Virus genome (UHGV): UHGV-0072281
DNA length: 64,000 nucleotides
Origin: a virus
Direction: 5' to 3' (one strand)
Shown: positions 2,147 to 35,932 of the stretch, one piece after another
Layout of the letters: each line of letters opens with the position of its first letter
Position numbering within the stretch: the first letter of the stretch is position 1
Position numbers and translations under genes: made by a program
Notes under the pieces: generated by a model
Databases searched by the model: none
What the model was told of the DNA's origin: nothing
Seen by the model: the letters and a program-made list of their open reading frames with translations, nothing else

Positions 2147-4663
2147 ATGGAGGTGGACATGTTAAAAGTTGAACGTATTGTACTTAAAGGATTTACCGGA
2201 ATGGGGTTACACGAAATCGAAACCTTCGATTTTACTATCCATTCCCCGACCACCATTATCCTCGGTGGTAACGGCTGCGGTAAGACCAGTTTACTGTCCG
2301 TGTTTCTACCTATCGCACCTTCGAAATCCGAATTCCGTGACGGGGGTTCTTACACCAACATCTGTTTGGTTAACGACCATCGTTACAAGTTTAAGGTTGC
2401 GCGTAAAGGCAACTCACTGGTTTGCGATATCGAGAACCTGACGACGGGTACCAAAATCGTCGAACAAGGTAATGCGAAAGTGTATAACTCTCGTGTAGAA
2501 GAAATCACGGGTATTACAAAAGAGATTAAAGAGTTACTGAACGGAGAAGTGCTTTTAACGGATGCAGGAACGGAACTGCGTCGTAAGTGGTTCTACCGTT
2601 TAAGTACGTCAGACTTAACTTACGCGTTAGGTTTTTATCAACGTTTACGAAAAAACCTGACGATGTTAAACGGCGGTGTTGAAATCACCAGCCGCAAGAT
2701 TGCAGAGTTGCGCACTCGCGTGATTGATAACGAGGAAGAACGTCAGCAGTTAGCAACACGGTTAAAAGCATTAGAAGTAGATTTACGTGAACTCAACAAA
2801 CAGATTGAACAACTGCCGGGTCTGAATCGTGACGTTACGGCGGCAACGATTCAATCGCTATTGCTTAAAATCGAAGCACCGATTAATGCTATCTTGGAAC
2901 ACCGTGGCGGATTACCTACGGAAGAACAGGTAGAGGAAGCACGACGCGTTGAAGCCACTGCCCGTGAAGCGGTGGTCTCTGCTGAAACAGAACTGTCCAT
3001 GCTAAACAAAGATTTGTCTTTGTTGATGGACGAGTCTACCCGCCAAGATTACCTGATGCGGAATCACGAGGGGTTAAAGAACACGGTTGCAAAACTGCGT
3101 GAGTTATTAAAGCAGTGGGACACCGAACATCTTTTCCCTGAACTGTTTGCGGAGACCGTTAATATCGACCAGCTTAAAGCAGCGACAGATGCGCGTGTCT
3201 GGGGACAACGTTTAGGAACAACGCTGGATGCTATTAAATCAACGGAACGGTTGAACGTACTGGAAGAGAAACTGTTGACCTTAGACCAAAACTCATCTGG
3301 GTTGCGTGACCGACTACAACGCGTTGAAAACGTATTGCAGAACCTCAACCACGAACGGAATCACTATTTGGAAACCGCCGAGGTTGATTGTCCGCAGTGT
3401 CAATTTAAATTCCGTCCGGGTGTGCGTCGTTCTTTGCCTGAATTGGAAGAAGCCATTCGTGGACAAATGGAGCAACGTAATACGTTACAGACTCAGCTTG
3501 ATTCCGTATTGCGAGACCGTACGGAATTAGAGTCGGACGTTAACTACATGCGTCAAGTACGAGAAATCGTTTTAACGTACTCGAAAGACCCGGTATTGAG
3601 TTTGTTCTTTAAACGTCTCCAGGAGCGGAATGTCTTTACGGATAACCGCAGTCAATTCGGCAGTCTGTGCGCGGAGTTTGATCATGAACTTTATTCCGCA
3701 ATTGAATACCACGAAACGAAACACCGTTTTGCTAAAGCGGAAAAAGAGTGGGCAAACGCAGTTGCAGCGGTAGGTAACGTTGATGGCGCTCTACAGCAGA
3801 AAATTGCCTTCCAGCAGGAGCGTTTGGGTAAGGCGACAGAAACGCTCTCAGAGCGCCGTAGAGAGCACGCAGTTGCTAATGATACCTTTTGTTATCTAAA
3901 CGAACTTAAAGCCACTGTAGACAATTTTAATGCGGTTTTTGAGCGTTTAGAGAACGATGTTAAGGTAACATTAACCAACACAGTGGTCGAAACGTTATTA
4001 AACGCCCGAGAAAACAAGTTGGATGCGTTCACCACAGCACGGGAACGGTACCGTCAGATGGAAAACGAACTCAACCAACTTACTGCGTTAGAAAAGGAGT
4101 TATCGGATTTACAAGCGCAGCAATTCAATAACAAACTGATGATTCAAGCGTTCTCGCCCGAGAAAGGGGTATTACGCAAATACTTCTACAACGCTATCGT
4201 GAGAATCACAGAATTAATGACGCGGTATATCGAACAAGTCTGGACCTACCCTATGCGGGTCATGCCGTGTGACTTAACCGACGGTGACTTAGACTACACG
4301 TTCCCAGTGCAGTTAAAAACCCATCCTGAACCGGTACCTGACGTGCGGAAAGGGTCGAAAGCGCAGCGGGCCATCTTTAATTTGATGTTTCGTTTAACCG
4401 CTTACAAAGCCCTGAAACTTCATCAGTATCCGCTACTGTTGGATGAACCGTCAGAAGGGATGGATGAGGAACACCGAAATAACCTCGTCGGGTTTATTAA
4501 AACCCTGGCGAATTCCGGTGAGTTCTCTCAGTTACTGGTGGTATCTCACGAAGCAGAAATTCATTCAAAACTTAACGAAGCCGCATACTGTGTTATTGAA
4601 CCTGAAGGTATAACACTGCCTGCGGTATACAACGAGGGAGTAAAAATTGTCTACGCAAACTGA
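2147..4663 (+). CDS. Rad50/SbcC-like SMC-family recombination ATPase (T4 gp46-like)
   Basis: Walker A GGNGCGKTSLL near N-terminus; long coiled-coil-like middle with CPQC zinc-hook motif (~3389-3400); C-terminal Walker B/D-loop LLLDEPSEGMD. ORF track start 1982 rejected: it overlaps the upstream terminator; in-frame ATG at 2147 or 2159 preferred. Confidence 0.75.
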   Translation: MEVDMLKVERIVLKGFTGMGLHEIETFDFTIHSPTTIILGGNGCGKTSLLSVFLPIAPSKSEFRDGGSYTNICLVNDHRYKFKVARKGNSLVCDIENLTTGTKIVEQGNAKVYNSRVEEITGITKEIKELLNGEVLLTDAGTELRRKWFYRLSTSDLTYALGFYQRLRKNLTMLNGGVEITSRKIAELRTRVIDNEEERQQLATRLKALEVDLRELNKQIEQLPGLNRDVTAATIQSLLLKIEAPINAILEHRGGLPTEEQVEEARRVEATAREAVVSAETELSMLNKDLSLLMDESTRQDYLMRNHEGLKNTVAKLRELLKQWDTEHLFPELFAETVNIDQLKAATDARVWGQRLGTTLDAIKSTERLNVLEEKLLTLDQNSSGLRDRLQRVENVLQNLNHERNHYLETAEVDCPQCQFKFRPGVRRSLPELEEAIRGQMEQRNTLQTQLDSVLRDRTELESDVNYMRQVREIVLTYSKDPVLSLFFKRLQERNVFTDNRSQFGSLCAEFDHELYSAIEYHETKHRFAKAEKEWANAVAAVGNVDGALQQKIAFQQERLGKATETLSERRREHAVANDTFCYLNELKATVDNFNAVFERLENDVKVTLTNTVVETLLNARENKLDAFTTARERYRQMENELNQLTALEKELSDLQAQQFNNKLMIQAFSPEKGVLRKYFYNAIVRITELMTRYIEQVWTYPMRVMPCDLTDGDLDYTFPVQLKTHPEPVPDVRKGSKAQRAIFNLMFRLTAYKALKLHQYPLLLDEPSEGMDEEHRNNLVGFIKTLANSGEFSQLLVVSHEAEIHSKLNEAAYCVIEPEGITLPAVYNEGVKIVYAN

Positions 4664-31507: not shown

Positions 31508-31827
31508 TGACTGTGAACGACAATATAAAGAAAAAGATTGACGAGATTATAAGCGTCAGTTTAGATAGAATCGAGTTAATTCCCGAGACTAAGGAAATCA
31601 AATACTACGTTCCCGCAGACGAACTATTTCCAGGTCTTCTTAGAATCTCACCAAAAAAGGTTGAAGAGGCTAAACGCCAATTCGAAGTTCGTGGCCTTAA
31701 GGTTGACATTGTTAACAAAAAACATTTTCATGTAACGTATAGCCAGGAAAACATTATTTTTAGTCCTGAGCAAGCGCAACGTAATTTAGATATTTTAACG
31801 AAACGAATGGGGAATAATAACAAATGA
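31507..31827 (+). CDS. hypothetical protein
   Basis: 106-aa ORF. Confidence 0.45.
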
Positions 31828-32864
31828 AACAGTATTTAGCGTTAATGCAAGACATTCTGGATAACGGCGTTGTCAAAAAAGACCGTACAGGTGTAGGGAC
31901 ACTTTCTGTATTTGGTCGCCAACTACGTTTTGACCTGAAAGAAGGTTTCCCATTAGTTACTACGAAAAAGGTTCACCTGAAAAGTATCATTCATGAACTG
32001 TTGTGGTTCTTAAACGGTGACACTAACGTGAAGTACCTGCAAGAGAATGGGGTAAGAATCTGGAACGAGTGGGCGAATGAAGAAGGGGAATTAGGCCCTG
32101 TCTACGGGCAGCAGTGGCGGGAATGGATGGATACCAAACTGGTTTATCTTTGGGACGAGCGTAGCAAAGACGTATTGAGAGAACGAGGATATCGCTACAT
32201 TGGGACTATCGCAAAGGACGATCCTGAAGAAAGTATCGTTATTTATCGCAAATCTCACGACCAGATCAGTAAAGTTATTCAACAACTTCGTGAAGACCCA
32301 GATTCACGACGCATTATTGTTAGTGCCTGGAACGTAGGTGATCTGGACGATATGGCACTTAACCCATGCCATAATTACTTCCAATTCTACACAACAGAAA
32401 TGACGTTGCTTGAACGACTGGATTGGTACGAAGTAAACGAACCGGAAAAATTTGCGAACGCACCACTTATTACTCACGAAGATATCGATAGCGAAGAACG
32501 ACTTCACGAAATTTTAGATCGTGAGGGCATTCCACGCCGTAAGCTTTCATGTTTTTACATGATGCGGAGCAACGATTACCTACTCGGCGCACCGTTTAAC
32601 GTCGCTTCTTACGCGTTGTTAACCCACATGATTGCTCAACAACTCAATATGGTTCCAGACGAGTTGGTTTATAGTGGCGTAGATGTTCATCTTTACTCTA
32701 ACCATCTGGAGCAGGCAAAACTTCAACTTACACGCGAACCTTACCCGCTACCTAAACTGGTTATCAAACGTAAACCTGATTCTATCTTCGATTACAAATA
32801 CGAAGACTTCGAATTGGTTGGGTATCAATCACACGACACAATTAAAGCTCCCATAGCTGTCTAA
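31824..32864 (+). CDS. thyA: thymidylate synthase (ThyA-type) with two internal insertions
   Basis: near-identical blocks to E. coli ThyA as recalled: [56 protein letters not shown] (catalytic Cys), [29 protein letters not shown]; 346 aa vs about 264. Confidence 0.9.
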
Positions 32865-33649: not shown

Positions 33650-33666
33650 TCGATGAGGTTGGTTGT

Positions 33667-33837
33667 ATGGAAGAATTAGAGACAGTTTCCTGTTACATTC
33701 CTAGAAGACGCGTTATAAAAGAATGTTACATCGATAAAATTTTAATCTCTCGTATCAAGAAAGGTCCACGAAAACATCGAACCAAGAAAGTGTTTATTTA
33801 TAAACACTTCGAAAAGGTTCTAATCCGACCTTACTGA
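33667..33837 (+). CDS. tiny basic protein with KKGPRKHR motif (paralog 1 of 3)
   Basis: hand-translated MEELETVSCYIPRRRVIKECYIDKILISRIKKGPRKHRTKKVFIYKHFEKVLIRPY; GAGG RBS. Confidence 0.35.
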   Translation: MEELETVSCYIPRRRVIKECYIDKILISRIKKGPRKHRTKKVFIYKHFEKVLIRPY

Positions 33838-33865
33838 TTAAATTAACTCATGGAGTAAATTTGTT

Positions 33866-34063
33866 ATGCTGAACGATGTTCTTAGTTTCTCGATAATGTA
33901 TTTCGAACCGAAGAAATTCCGTACCATTGTTACACGTTGTCGGAAAGGGCCGCGTAAAGGACGTAAACGTTTCCAAGTAATTCAACTTTCTTATTCTGCG
34001 CTCCTTGAAGCTAACCCATTCGAGATGAAACCTAATGAAGAAACCGGATTTACTCAACATTGA
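33866..34063 (+). CDS. small basic protein with RKGPRKGRKR motif (paralog 2 of 3)
   Basis: IVTRCRKGPRKGRKRFQV aligns with ILISRIKKGPRKHRTKKVF of the preceding ORF. Confidence 0.4.
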   Translation: MLNDVLSFSIMYFEPKKFRTIVTRCRKGPRKGRKRFQVIQLSYSALLEANPFEMKPNEETGFTQH

Positions 34064-34274
34064 TTACGTGATCGGCGGTATAATCCTCGTCGGATATGCC
34101 CGCAAACGTAAAGGGCCCGGCAGCAACAAATTCTTCGGTAAACGTGTTGTAAAATCAATGGCATGTCTCAGACCGCAGAAATATTGGCCCCTAATGTACT
34201 TCAATAGTATGCACGATGCGGCCGACAAACGTATGGCTCTGTGTATAAGAAAATTAGAGGGTAAAAATGACTGA
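34035..34274 (+). CDS. small basic protein with RKRKGPGS motif (paralog 3 of 3)
   Basis: ILVGYARKRKGPGSNKFFGKRVV shares the [KR]KGP[RG] core. Confidence 0.4.
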   Translation: MKKPDLLNIDYVIGGIILVGYARKRKGPGSNKFFGKRVVKSMACLRPQKYWPLMYFNSMHDAADKRMALCIRKLEGKND

Positions 34275-34410
34275 AGAAGTTAAAGTAGAAACCATTAAAG
34301 AATCTGACGAATTTGCAATCCCTGGCTTAGACCCGGAAACAACCGTAGAGAAGGGTGCTGACCCAACTACGGAAGACGATAACTGCTCAGGCGGGGCTTG
34401 CAAAATTTAA
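34267..34410 (+). CDS. tiny acidic peptide (47 aa) ending CSGGACKI
   Basis: hand-translated; GAGGG RBS 6 nt upstream; followed by terminator. Confidence 0.3.
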   Translation: MTEEVKVETIKESDEFAIPGLDPETTVEKGADPTTEDDNCSGGACKI

Positions 34411-34418
34411 CAGTTCAT

Positions 34419-34458
34419 GGGGTGCTTATGTAGCACCCCTAATCCTTATTCTTTTTGT
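34419..34458 (+). terminator. rho-independent terminator (ggggtgct tatgt agcacccc + T-rich)
   Basis: 8-bp stem. Confidence 0.5.
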
Positions 34459-34478: not shown

Positions 34479-35309
34479 ATGGGCGAACGTTTTGACATCA
34501 ACACTATTTACAACATCGTGGTTAATCCTGGTCAACACCTGGAAGAAGTTAACGCACAACTGCGTGCTCTGAATGAAAAAGCAATGCAGTTCGATGCTAT
34601 TTACACAATTGGTGTAAATCCTGGCACCAACCGTGTTCGTGTAGAAGGTAAACGCCACACCGGTAATCAAGAACTGGATATCGAAACGATCGAAGCACCG
34701 ATTAAACTTACAGGTGCCGAATATAACGGTACAGTAATGCACACCGTATCGGTTCCGGTCTACTCTATCGAGAACTGTGTAGAACGTGTTAAAGGTTGGT
34801 CTAAAGAACGTGGTATTCTCGACAACGGTAAACTGGAAACACAAATCACAAAGTTCTTTGAAGAGTTTGGTGAAATCGCAACAGGTATCAGCAAAAACAA
34901 ACCTGAACTGATCATGGACGGTATCGGCGATGCGTTAGTGGTTCTGGTGAACATTCTGGAACTGGGTAAAGAATACCATGACGAATACTTAACAACGGCC
35001 GATATTATTAGTAGCGGTTTAACTATGCAACTTCGTGATGTTGCAAATGTTGAAGCTTGTGCAAACGATCATAAATTCCCACATCGAAAATACCTGGAAG
35101 CAACTAAATCTTTTTCCACGTCTTTCTTAAATACTAACAAAGACGATAACCTGTTCGATCATGGTTTGTATTGCCTTGCTTGTCTCGCGCTGTATTACAA
35201 ACTGGACATTCGCCATTGTTTCTCTTTAGCCTGGCATGAAATCAAAGACCGTAAAGGTTACCTGAACGCCGACGGCATCTTTGTAAAAGATGCAGACTTG
35301 GCGAAATAA
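34479..35309 (+). CDS. MazG-like nucleotide pyrophosphohydrolase domain (C-terminal) with N-terminal extension
   Basis: FFEEFGEIATGI...DGIGDALVVLVNILE...WHEIKDRKG fits the all-alpha NTP-PPase EExxE...D..GD...L...K.R pattern. Confidence 0.5.
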   Translation: MGERFDINTIYNIVVNPGQHLEEVNAQLRALNEKAMQFDAIYTIGVNPGTNRVRVEGKRHTGNQELDIETIEAPIKLTGAEYNGTVMHTVSVPVYSIENCVERVKGWSKERGILDNGKLETQITKFFEEFGEIATGISKNKPELIMDGIGDALVVLVNILELGKEYHDEYLTTADIISSGLTMQLRDVANVEACANDHKFPHRKYLEATKSFSTSFLNTNKDDNLFDHGLYCLACLALYYKLDIRHCFSLAWHEIKDRKGYLNADGIFVKDADLAK

Positions 35310-35317
35310 ATAAAAGT

Positions 35318-35370
35318 ACCTACCTCCTTTCGGAGGTAGGTTAACTTTCTTATTTTTTTTTCTTTTTTTT
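35318..35370. terminator. bidirectional terminator (acctacctcc tttcg ggaggtaggt + long T-run), repeat copy 1
   Basis: near-identical element at 59033-59074; sits between convergent gene ends. Confidence 0.65.
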
Positions 35371-35932
35371 AAGCGCCAGGAACAATTCCAGAAGAGATAT
35401 ACGTCAAACCGTCAAGTTCGGTGACTTTAATCAACTTCGAAATGTCCTTACCGTCAGACGGCAGCTCTGTTAAGTACACCTCCAGCCGACCTGTCCACGC
35501 CAAAGATCTCCCATTCATGATAATGATAGTTTTATCTTTGCTGTCTGGTGCAGCTGTTGGGTTCTCAACTTCGTCGTCGGTAATCTGTAAATTGTACTTA
35601 TTGCGGAAAAGTTGTAGTACCTCAGATACCGTAGTCGCATTAACACCCGCAACAGAAACTACAAAGTCACCTAAGAGGTGCTCTAAATCCAATCGACGAT
35701 AAATAACGTCGATTTTACCAAATGTTTTCTGCTCGATGATACCCTGGACGCTAAGTTGAGTATTTAATCGTGTAAATTGAGTTTCTGGTGTTTCTACCGC
35801 AGGAATATGTGACGGCGTGCCAAAATCCAACTTATCGATTGTAATACCTTTATCTACCAAACCTGGATTCTTTTTTACTAATAACTCATAAACCAGTTGT
35901 TTTCCTGATTTACCTAATAGCGTATTAGCCAT
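35369..35932 (-). CDS. hypothetical protein (virion-module gene)
   Basis: 187-aa ORF in minus-strand block. Confidence 0.5.
   Translation of the reverse strand: MANTLLGKSGKQLVYELLVKKNPGLVDKGITIDKLDFGTPSHIPAVETPETQFTRLNTQLSVQGIIEQKTFGKIDVIYRRLDLEHLLGDFVVSVAGVNATTVSEVLQLFRNKYNLQITDDEVENPTAAPDSKDKTIIIMNGRSLAWTGRLEVYLTELPSDGKDISKLIKVTELDGLTYISSGIVPGA

Follow-up and report, generated by a model that had tools for sequence, protein, structure and literature searches.

In class I ribonucleotide reductase (RNR), the disordered tail returns the active-site disulfide to its reduced form and in turn receives electrons from thioredoxin or glutaredoxin (PMC9669993; PMC4078304). The GRF zinc fingers form three-stranded sheets, and the phenylalanine of their GRxF motif is potentially a key residue for DNA binding; topoisomerase repeats related to them lose their cysteines yet keep the ability to bind single-stranded DNA (ssDNA) (PMC9369019). 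These are the described systems that most resemble the locus reported here, positions 33667–34410 of a 64,000-nucleotide stretch (hereafter, the window) of the virus genome UHGV-0072281. The locus encodes three tiny basic proteins in tandem, each with a Lys-Gly-Pro (KGP) motif, followed by an acidic peptide of 47 amino acids (aa). On the sequence evidence, the KGP proteins are best regarded as a new, previously undescribed and fast-evolving mini-protein family, absent from Pfam, NCBIfam, PHROGs and the searchable literature. The acidic peptide, whose family is likewise absent from Pfam, NCBIfam and the searchable literature, displays sequence mimicry of the redox tail of the alpha subunit of host RNR (R1; NrdA in Escherichia coli). 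The open reading frames (ORFs) and motifs of the locus are listed below, with types named after proteins of phage Goslar.

33667–33837, plus strand: ORF1, 56 aa, isoelectric point (pI) 10.1, KGP mini-protein of the Goslar gp137 type
33757–33771, plus strand: KKGPR motif in ORF1
33866–34063, plus strand: ORF2, 65 aa, pI 10.0, KGP mini-protein closest to Goslar gp139
33941–33955, plus strand: RKGPR motif in ORF2 (whole conserved block RKGPRKGRKRF)
34035–34274, plus strand: ORF3, 79 aa, pI 10.1
34107–34121, plus strand: RKGPG motif in ORF3
34267–34410, plus strand: acidic 47-aa peptide, pI 4.05, net charge -9.5 (phrog_14561, phrog_38753, phrog_24014)
34372–34407, plus strand: NrdA-tail-like last 12 codons of the acidic peptide, EDDNCSGGACKI

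ORF1, ORF2 and ORF3 occupy three different plus-strand frames, with overlaps of 29 nucleotides (nt) between ORF2 and ORF3 and of 8 nt between ORF3 and the acidic ORF. Coordinates, lengths, peptides and the latter overlap agree with the original prediction, which had described ORFs of 56, 65 and 79 aa running into a small acidic ORF. The KGP motif is found beyond what chance would give. In a six-frame translation of the whole window, [KR]KGP[RKGH] occurs exactly three times, once in each of ORF1–ORF3, against 0.35 ± 0.62 occurrences expected from Markov-2 shuffles; none of 300 shuffles contained even two within 450 nt. A relaxed form of the motif, searched across 362 kb of other loci, returned family members and two strays only. 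The three motifs are not copies of a DNA repeat, since the only repeats found in the region are short and at chance level.

The window DNA is 100% identical to the IMG/VR contig IMGVR_UViG_3300014543_000002 and derives from a jumbo phage that is distant kin of SPN3US and Caitlin (72–78% nucleotide identity, in conserved genes only). In those two phages the acidic-peptide gene starts 7–12 nt after the homologue of a 148-aa gene that in the window precedes ORF1, so that the trio amounts to roughly 600 extra bases; neither the motif nor an HMM (hidden Markov model) match was found in all 240 kb of SPN3US, and Caitlin also is without the trio. Closer relatives from IMG/VR (L005–L007; flanking protein 95–98% identical) carry ORF2 and ORF3 and lack ORF1. 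The DNA of ORF2 and ORF3 is far more diverged from these relatives than the flanks are, and throughout the frames are open, the motif is invariant and indels are multiples of 3. ORF2 and ORF3 offer 69 codons that can be aligned, and over these no frame other than the annotated plus frame is stop-free; its ratio of nonsynonymous to synonymous differences (pN/pS) is 0.40–0.46, with the differences clustered at codon position 3. Stops interrupt the antisense frame that has its third positions in common. A codon-usage log-likelihood trained on long genes of the same phage is positive in the annotated frames only (0.08, 0.22 and 0.27 for ORF1, ORF2 and ORF3, respectively), values that none of 2000 off-frame windows reached. 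Support is weakest for ORF1, with 18 differences from relative L075, a pN/pS of 0.46 and atypical codon usage. Here too the annotated frame is the only one free of stops, and ORF1, which occurs in the window and in L075-type genomes, is kept in at least five other contigs (homologues P0097, P0104, P0110 and P0174). We are therefore confident that ORF1–ORF3 are real genes, and the earlier suggestion of real, related plus-strand proteins defined by the KGP motif is borne out by frame-specific selection, codon usage and motif statistics.

Compared with L005–L007, positions 33650–34266 form a hyper-divergent island between near-identical flanks. The synonymous divergence (dS) of ORF2 between the window and L006 is about 2.2, against 0.41 in the adjoining 148-aa gene, and for some pairs it lies several-fold above that of the flanks. 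By synonymous divergence the window ORF2 groups with that of L005, and the ORF3 of L005 groups with those of L006 and L007; these differing allele groupings point to recombination having shuffled the small genes as independent cassettes. A nucleotide search against 50,697 phage genomes gave nothing in the trio region, with distant matches beginning only at the acidic peptide and MazG, and tblastn with ORF1–ORF3 gave nothing significant. A weak tblastn hit, ORF1 against Goslar at E=0.3, gained meaning only through synteny and profiles.

In Goslar, a run of three tiny ORFs lies directly downstream of thymidylate synthase (ThyA), each bearing the motif: KKGPRKGKWRY (48 aa), KKGCNKGKRF (67 aa) and KRGPGKGRQKK (65 aa). 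Profile comparison with hhalign relates ORF1 to the gp137 subfamily (95.7% over 33 columns) and ORF2 to gp139 (84%), and these profiles make ORF1 the counterpart of Goslar gp137 and, probably, ORF2 that of gp139. ORF3 is linked to the other subfamilies through about 23 columns (hhalign 72.7%) and is missed by the A5 HMM; together with the gp138 type it is an outlier of the family, and the remaining subfamily links are weaker. A combined profile searched against 5.8 billion proteins returned 112 members of 40–96 aa, unnamed and without Pfam domains, from contigs of about 220–250 kb. Exhaustive HMMER searching of 1.84 billion representatives added three small phage proteins and two tandem-repeat false positives (P0173 and P0177), which were rejected as members; no larger protein containing the KGP module was present among these representatives. 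IMG/VR scans with the ORF2 and ORF3 profiles returned the same four contigs only. Neither ORF1–ORF3 nor their Goslar homologues gave a credible match in Pfam, PHROGs or NCBIfam, and a literature search for Goslar gp137–gp139 returned nothing.

The members have a common layout: a hydrophobic stretch with an aromatic residue, a second hydrophobic stretch, the block R-x-[KR]-K-G-P-x-K-G-[KR], a third hydrophobic stretch and often a terminal P-[FYMW]. The KGP turn is near-invariant and the third strand usually opens with an aromatic or aliphatic residue. Net charges range from +6 to +11 at a pI of about 10, with ORF3 at +10.6; in ORF3 the 33 N-terminal residues are conserved (MKKP, a hydrophobic segment, then GYxRxRKGPG) and the C-terminus is variable. 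We accordingly define the family by a size of 40–80 aa, a pI of about 10, the motif R-x-[KR]-K-G-[PCYV]-x-K-G-[KR] between two hydrophobic stretches, and tandem encoding downstream of ThyA in a jumbo phage. ORF1 and ORF2 possess all of these properties, and ORF3 has the motif, size, charge and position. The genes that surround the trio in the window are as follows.

31824–32864, plus strand: thymidylate synthase (ThyA)
Between ThyA and the 148-aa gene, plus strand: helix-turn-helix-like gene, 98 aa
33203–33649, plus strand: 148-aa gene (phrog_2586)
34419–34456, plus strand: terminator-like GC-rich hairpin GGGGTGCT / AGCACCCC with a 5-nt loop, followed by a T-rich tract
34479–35309, plus strand: MazG

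KGP genes follow ThyA, in tandem, in every context examined (the window, the Goslar locus L062, and L071–L075). In L071–L073 the order is ThyA, an ORF2-like gene, a fusion of ORF3 with the acidic peptide, and MazG; the layout of L075 resembles that of the window and the layout of L074 that of Goslar. A search for homologous arrays of small ORFs thus found tandem sets in Goslar and in L071–L075, and the motif is conserved in the IMG/VR relatives L005–L007, in L071–L075 and in the distant Goslar, contrary to the refuting outcome (no conservation in related genomes) set out in the original prediction. The family is confined to two clades of Enterobacterales jumbo phages, that of the window and the Goslar type. 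The 98-aa gene of the window shows no similarity to Goslar gp140.

Three atypical proteins were observed. P0103 (83 aa, on a 4.8-kb Logan contig) is a complete ORF1-like protein preceded by the first ~27 residues of the 148-aa protein, so that most of the 148-aa gene appears to have been deleted. P0105 (L074:4001–4291) is of the gp139 type with an acidic N-terminal extension of 45 residues. P0112 (72 aa, from a 470-bp NCBI contig) carries the KGP motif (…EKRMTRVRKGPGKGRKRIVHVMRRG), is more distant than the others and has an N-terminal half that is longer and unrelated; it hints at a third lineage of the family.

The more informative part of the locus is the acidic peptide, which reproduces the redox tail found at the C-terminus of host R1. 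It ends in EDDNCSGGACKI, and E. coli NrdA, as read directly from the MG1655 nrdA gene, ends in QDDGCESGACKI. Eight of the 12 terminal residues are identical, including both redox-shuttle cysteines with their C-x4-C spacing and the terminal GACKI, and blastp-short aligned the peptide with NrdA over 15 aa, end to end, with 60–67% identity (pairwise E 3e-5 to 1e-4). Among 1084 window ORFs the peptide is a lone outlier, the other 1083 scoring at most 3 of 12, and it is the best NrdA match across the window and likewise across the complete SPN3US genome. Other family members come nearer to NrdA, with ends such as ...DEGGCESGACKL (Erwinia phage Phobos) and ...DDSGCEGGACKI (several others). The conserved core of the peptide reads IPGLDP..V..G.DP..EDDNCSGGACKI; the cysteine pair is invariant in four aligned phage peptides and present in the other natural-end members read.

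The likeness to the class Ia RNR alpha tail (C754 and C759 in E. coli NrdA) thus consists of DD-x-C-x-x-G-A-C-K-I-stop, with the same residues, spacing and terminal position, in an acidic context that is modelled as disordered (low predicted local distance difference test, pLDDT) and next to genes of nucleotide metabolism. The peptide differs in being free-standing (43–120 aa) or fused to a KGP protein, whereas the NrdA tail terminates an enzyme of 761 aa; moreover, its similarity to NrdA is confined to the last ~15 residues, and further upstream the peptide has a conserved block of its own, IPGLDP..VEGGVD. With tblastn of NrdA and NrdB, a search covering class Ia only, no RNR was detected in the window or across the complete genome of SPN3US, which encodes ThyA, DHFR, thymidylate kinase (Tmk) and MazG. 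Since the 47-aa ORF stands free and no NrdA or NrdB was found, it is read as a mimic or derivative of RNR, not as an RNR. SPN3US also encodes two adjacent radical-SAM proteins (gp102–gp103; L079:40024–42139), far from the acidic Cys-containing peptide.

The peptide is present in 74 sequenced phages, all of 224–267 kb, with hosts in Erwinia, Salmonella, Cronobacter, Escherichia and Proteus, and is always annotated as 'hypothetical protein'. Free-standing acidic versions of 43–48 aa ending in ...VEGGVDA..EDDNC[AV]GGACKI also occur on Neisseria chromosomes (L082, L083, L085:6001–6132). These orphan genes have differing neighbours, lying beside DUF3079 and HxlR genes or following a SulP transporter, with no nrd genes near and not in a prophage. 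No description of free R1-tail peptides was found in the searchable literature.

ORF3 and the peptide are linked in several ways. Their genes overlap by 8 nt in the window and through an ATGA in L006. In L007, in L071–L073 and in many database entries (P0115–P0126), including Salmonella enterica isolate assemblies, they form a single protein of 120 aa, and L005 retains a remnant of the fused frame. Programmed frameshifting from ORF3 into the peptide was considered and rejected, as the relative frames differ (-1 in L006, +1 in the window and none in L075). The overlap and the fusions argue for functional coupling, and ORF3 therefore probably acts with the peptide.

With regard to what the KGP proteins resemble, AlphaFold2 (AF2) places RKGPRKGR of ORF2 in a loop (residues 26–33) at the tip of a predicted beta-hairpin (strands 17–25 and 34–42). 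Three strands are predicted, and the hairpin is the best-scored part (pLDDT 72–74) of a low-confidence model whose mean is only 59.5. When the family profile was run against PDB sequences, a weak match to the tandem GRF fingers of NEIL3 was returned (E=2.8). Verified GRF sequences of APE2 and NEIL3 were used for further comparison by hhalign, which scored the family against the GRF zinc finger at 61.7% over IVTRCRKGPRKGRKRFQVI ~ LRTVKKAGPNCGRQFYVCA; the gp138-type KHKKGCNKGKRF pairs with VKKAGPNCGRQF in identical spacing and register. Across the subfamilies the values were 61.7%, 20.8%, 6.3% and 0.1%. The gp138-type KKGCNKGKRF has the spacing of the GRF motif, KGPRKGRKRF of ORF2 has one extra residue before the phenylalanine, and ORF1, gp137 and ORF3 have no phenylalanine at the GRxF position.

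The GRF zinc fingers (PF06839; APE2, NEIL3, TOP3A) share with the KGP proteins a size of about 40–50 aa, a motif resembling [KR]-x-G-P-x-x-G-[RK]-x(1-2)-F between two strands, basic surroundings and, often, an aromatic residue or tryptophan near the C-terminus; GRF fingers bind ssDNA through the face that carries the motif. The phage proteins are free-standing and tandem, whereas the GRF fingers are C-terminal domains of eukaryotic repair or topology enzymes. A precedent for small tandem beta-sheet modules that bind ssDNA and are zinc-less is given by the topoisomerase repeats with GR[FY]GPY (Topo_C_Rpt PF13368 and Topo_Zn_Ribbon PF08272; PMC9369019). These differ in motif order (GR[FY]GPY versus KGPxKGR..F), give no Pfam match and are domains of a large enzyme. 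By analogy, the KGP proteins may work like a zinc-less GRF knuckle, without being classed as GRF fingers. Nucleic-acid binding is plausible in view of their charge (pI ~10, net +6 to +11) and this resemblance. A ribosomal protein L34-like likeness, judged by eye, found no Pfam support and was set aside.

From these likenesses we infer the following mechanism. A Gly-Pro turn would present a Lys/Arg-rich beta-hairpin 'knuckle', parallel to the KxGPNxGRxF of GRF zinc fingers and formed without zinc, and this knuckle would bind a polyanion, most likely single-stranded DNA or RNA. For this step, the presentation of a basic hairpin to a single-stranded nucleic acid or other polyanion, the chance is put at rather less than even. 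The divergence of the tandem paralogues and the shuffling of their alleles suggest that diversifying pressure acts on a role directed at the host or at competitors. The acidic peptide would be a free copy of the disordered C-terminal tail of host class Ia RNR alpha (Cys-x4-Cys-Lys-Ile-stop), acting as a free-standing mimic of that tail: it could engage the partners of the R1 tail in trans, namely thioredoxin or glutaredoxin and/or the R1 active site, and so tune the host supply of deoxynucleoside triphosphates (dNTPs). ORF3, translationally coupled to the peptide in the window by the 8-nt overlap, would act together with it. Taken as a whole, KGP mini-proteins as basic-hairpin polyanion binders, and a free R1-tail mimic to which they have been repeatedly joined, form the best explanation of the locus, one held tentatively and somewhat short of an even chance. 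Its furthest extension, in which positions 33667–34410 constitute a device for taking over host deoxynucleotide synthesis, with the trans tail of RNR-less jumbo phages acting on host NrdAB or its thioredoxin/glutaredoxin reductants, as an extra electron shuttle that increases turnover or as a decoy diverting reducing power, and the zinc-less GRF-like KGP knuckles tethering it to single-stranded nucleic acid at sites of phage replication or transcription, is unlikely.

Several observations weigh against this explanation. The likeness to GRF fingers spans only about 19 columns, a search of 31 members with the Pfam zf-GRF model gave no match, no invariant Cys or His corresponding to the CHCC zinc ligands is present in the subfamily alignments of ORF2, gp138 and gp137/ORF1, and ORF3 shows no GRF signal by hhalign. 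The zinc ligands being absent or unconserved (C54 and C63 of the gp137 type give way to Y or R in several of its members), the zf-GRF model failing to match and ORF3 being without signal, membership of the GRF family is not claimed. The proline of KGP is itself replaced by C, Y or V in gp138-type members. With respect to the peptide, the tail match covers only 12–15 residues, and NrdA was not reported by phmmer of the peptide against the PDB because so short a match is missed. SPN3US is the sole carrier genome searched completely for RNR, and for class Ia only. The Neisseria chromosomal homologues indicate that the peptide is not purely a phage anti-host device. Finally, tblastn at E<=1 found no counterpart of the peptide in Goslar, and SPN3US carries the peptide with no KGP genes; the two families thus occur independently, and their fusion could be an opportunistic accident of adjacency.

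The same gene arrangement could also be read as showing that the KGP proteins are not nucleic-acid binders and instead serve as protein-binding adaptors of the nucleotide-precursor machinery, in which the basic hairpin docks on an acidic surface (the NrdA or NrdB tails, thioredoxin, or the phage ThyA or MazG) and ORF3 delivers the R1-tail mimic. KGP genes always adjoin ThyA, and in the window clade they lie between ThyA and MazG; ORF3::tail fusions occur in many genomes, with translational coupling through 8-nt or ATGA overlaps, and the charges of ORF3 (+10.6) and the peptide (-9.5) are complementary. The possession by Goslar of a KGP trio with no tail peptide by tblastn at the above threshold speaks against such a role, phage gene neighbourhoods often mirror timing and not function, and in a low-confidence AF2 model of the fusion the tail is not docked on the N-terminal part. 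We consider adaptors unlikely.

The original prediction had likened the KGP motif to the AT-hook and suggested that the peptides could compact DNA or target the host nucleoid; on such a reading they would insert into the minor groove of AT-rich double-stranded DNA. The AT-hook provides a precedent for a basic Gly-Pro DNA-binding element, and the two have in common a short element rich in Gly, Pro, Arg and Lys (PF02178) within proteins that are here highly basic, with Gly-Pro beside Arg/Lys. Cren7, an archaeal chromatin protein (2jtm), is likewise a basic protein of 60 aa that contains PKGRKG followed by K-I-G-L-F-K, comparable with GKGRQKKVGIYK of gp137; it has an all-beta fold in which the PKGRKG segment is a hairpin loop contacting the DNA minor groove. 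The AT-hook label is nevertheless not supported, on several counts. The GRP/RGRP core occurs in no member, the motif being K-G-P-[RGKHN]-K. The Pfam AT_hook model matches neither ORF1–ORF3 at E<=1 nor any of 31 family members at E<=10. The motif lies between conserved hydrophobic strands, in what AF2 predicts at low confidence to be a structured hairpin, whereas AT-hooks lie in disordered linkers. Homology to Cren7 is rejected (hhalign 0.7%), leaving an analogy at most, and AT-hook-like action in the minor groove is improbable.

A membrane association has also to be weighed, at least for ORF3, in which an N-terminal hydrophobic helix with a positive-inside RKRKGPG anchor would make the KGP motif a juxtamembrane feature. 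ORF3 begins MKKP and continues into a hydrophobic stretch, is the most hydrophobic member of the family, and has residues 9–24 of the fusion modelled by AF2 as a helix. Its maximal Kyte-Doolittle value over 19 residues is 1.25 in the window and 0.46 in L071, against the ~1.6 usual for a transmembrane helix; Arg, His and Asp occur within the stretch in relatives, and ORF1 and ORF2 have no such segment, all of which renders this reading quite improbable. Most improbable of all is that ORF1–ORF3 are non-functional, as decaying remnants of a mobile element or homing endonuclease or as chance ORFs in a hypervariable spacer, a reading encouraged by the absence of the segment from SPN3US and Caitlin, its low GC of 0.366, the atypical codons of ORF1, an imperfect 18-nt direct repeat near the segment ends and the three differing frames, and countered by purifying selection and coding potential confined to the annotated frames, indels in multiples of 3, retention of the family by a distant clade at the same genomic position, the lack of any larger module-bearing protein in 1.84 billion representatives, and the lack of endonuclease motifs or Pfam matches.

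The imperfect direct repeat, TGTATGGAAGAATTAGAG (33664–33681) and TGTATAAGAAAATTAGAG (34242–34259), is 78% identical with its copies 578 nt apart, one at the start of ORF1 and the other just 5' of the acidic-peptide start codon. It could be a relic of the insertion of the segment, or chance. The hairpin at 34419–34456, read directly from the sequence, was not reported by a simple consensus terminator scan. This hairpin recurs in L005, Caitlin and SPN3US, where the inner stem differs by compensatory changes (GCT/AGC versus TCC/GGA; L001:~3100–3140 and L002:~3125–3165), and is likely a terminator or processing site that closes the gene string from ThyA to the peptide. A perfect hairpin with a 10-bp stem at 35318–35341, readable on both strands, lies between the convergent MazG and DUF7941 virion genes and scores as a bidirectional terminator; it accounts for a sub-threshold Rfam 'PyrG leader' match at 35304–35378. 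Rfam and tRNA scans of the region gave sub-threshold chance matches only, and a sigma-70 promoter scan was not above expectation. The window thymidylate synthase, of 346 aa, covers the 266-position Pfam model from one end to the other, which makes its ~80 extra residues internal insertions; these are common to its relatives (339–346 aa).

No part of a phage genome is annotated as poorly as its small proteins, of which this locus provides two concrete cases. The KGP family is marked by a well-delimited motif, a constant position beside ThyA, tandem paralogues and shuffled alleles, and because Goslar, which carries a KGP set, is experimentally studied, its function is directly testable. If the acidic peptide acts on host RNR or on thioredoxin or glutaredoxin, it would represent a new viral route to the control of dNTP supply and a natural trans-acting tool for studying electron shuttling by the R1 tail, a step whose observation is made difficult by the disorder of the tail. 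To judge from the Neisseria homologues, bacteria may themselves make use of free tails. Should the locus prove to be a module for the takeover of deoxynucleotide synthesis, it would exemplify a new class of viral mimicry, in which a disordered enzyme tail is copied instead of a folded protein.

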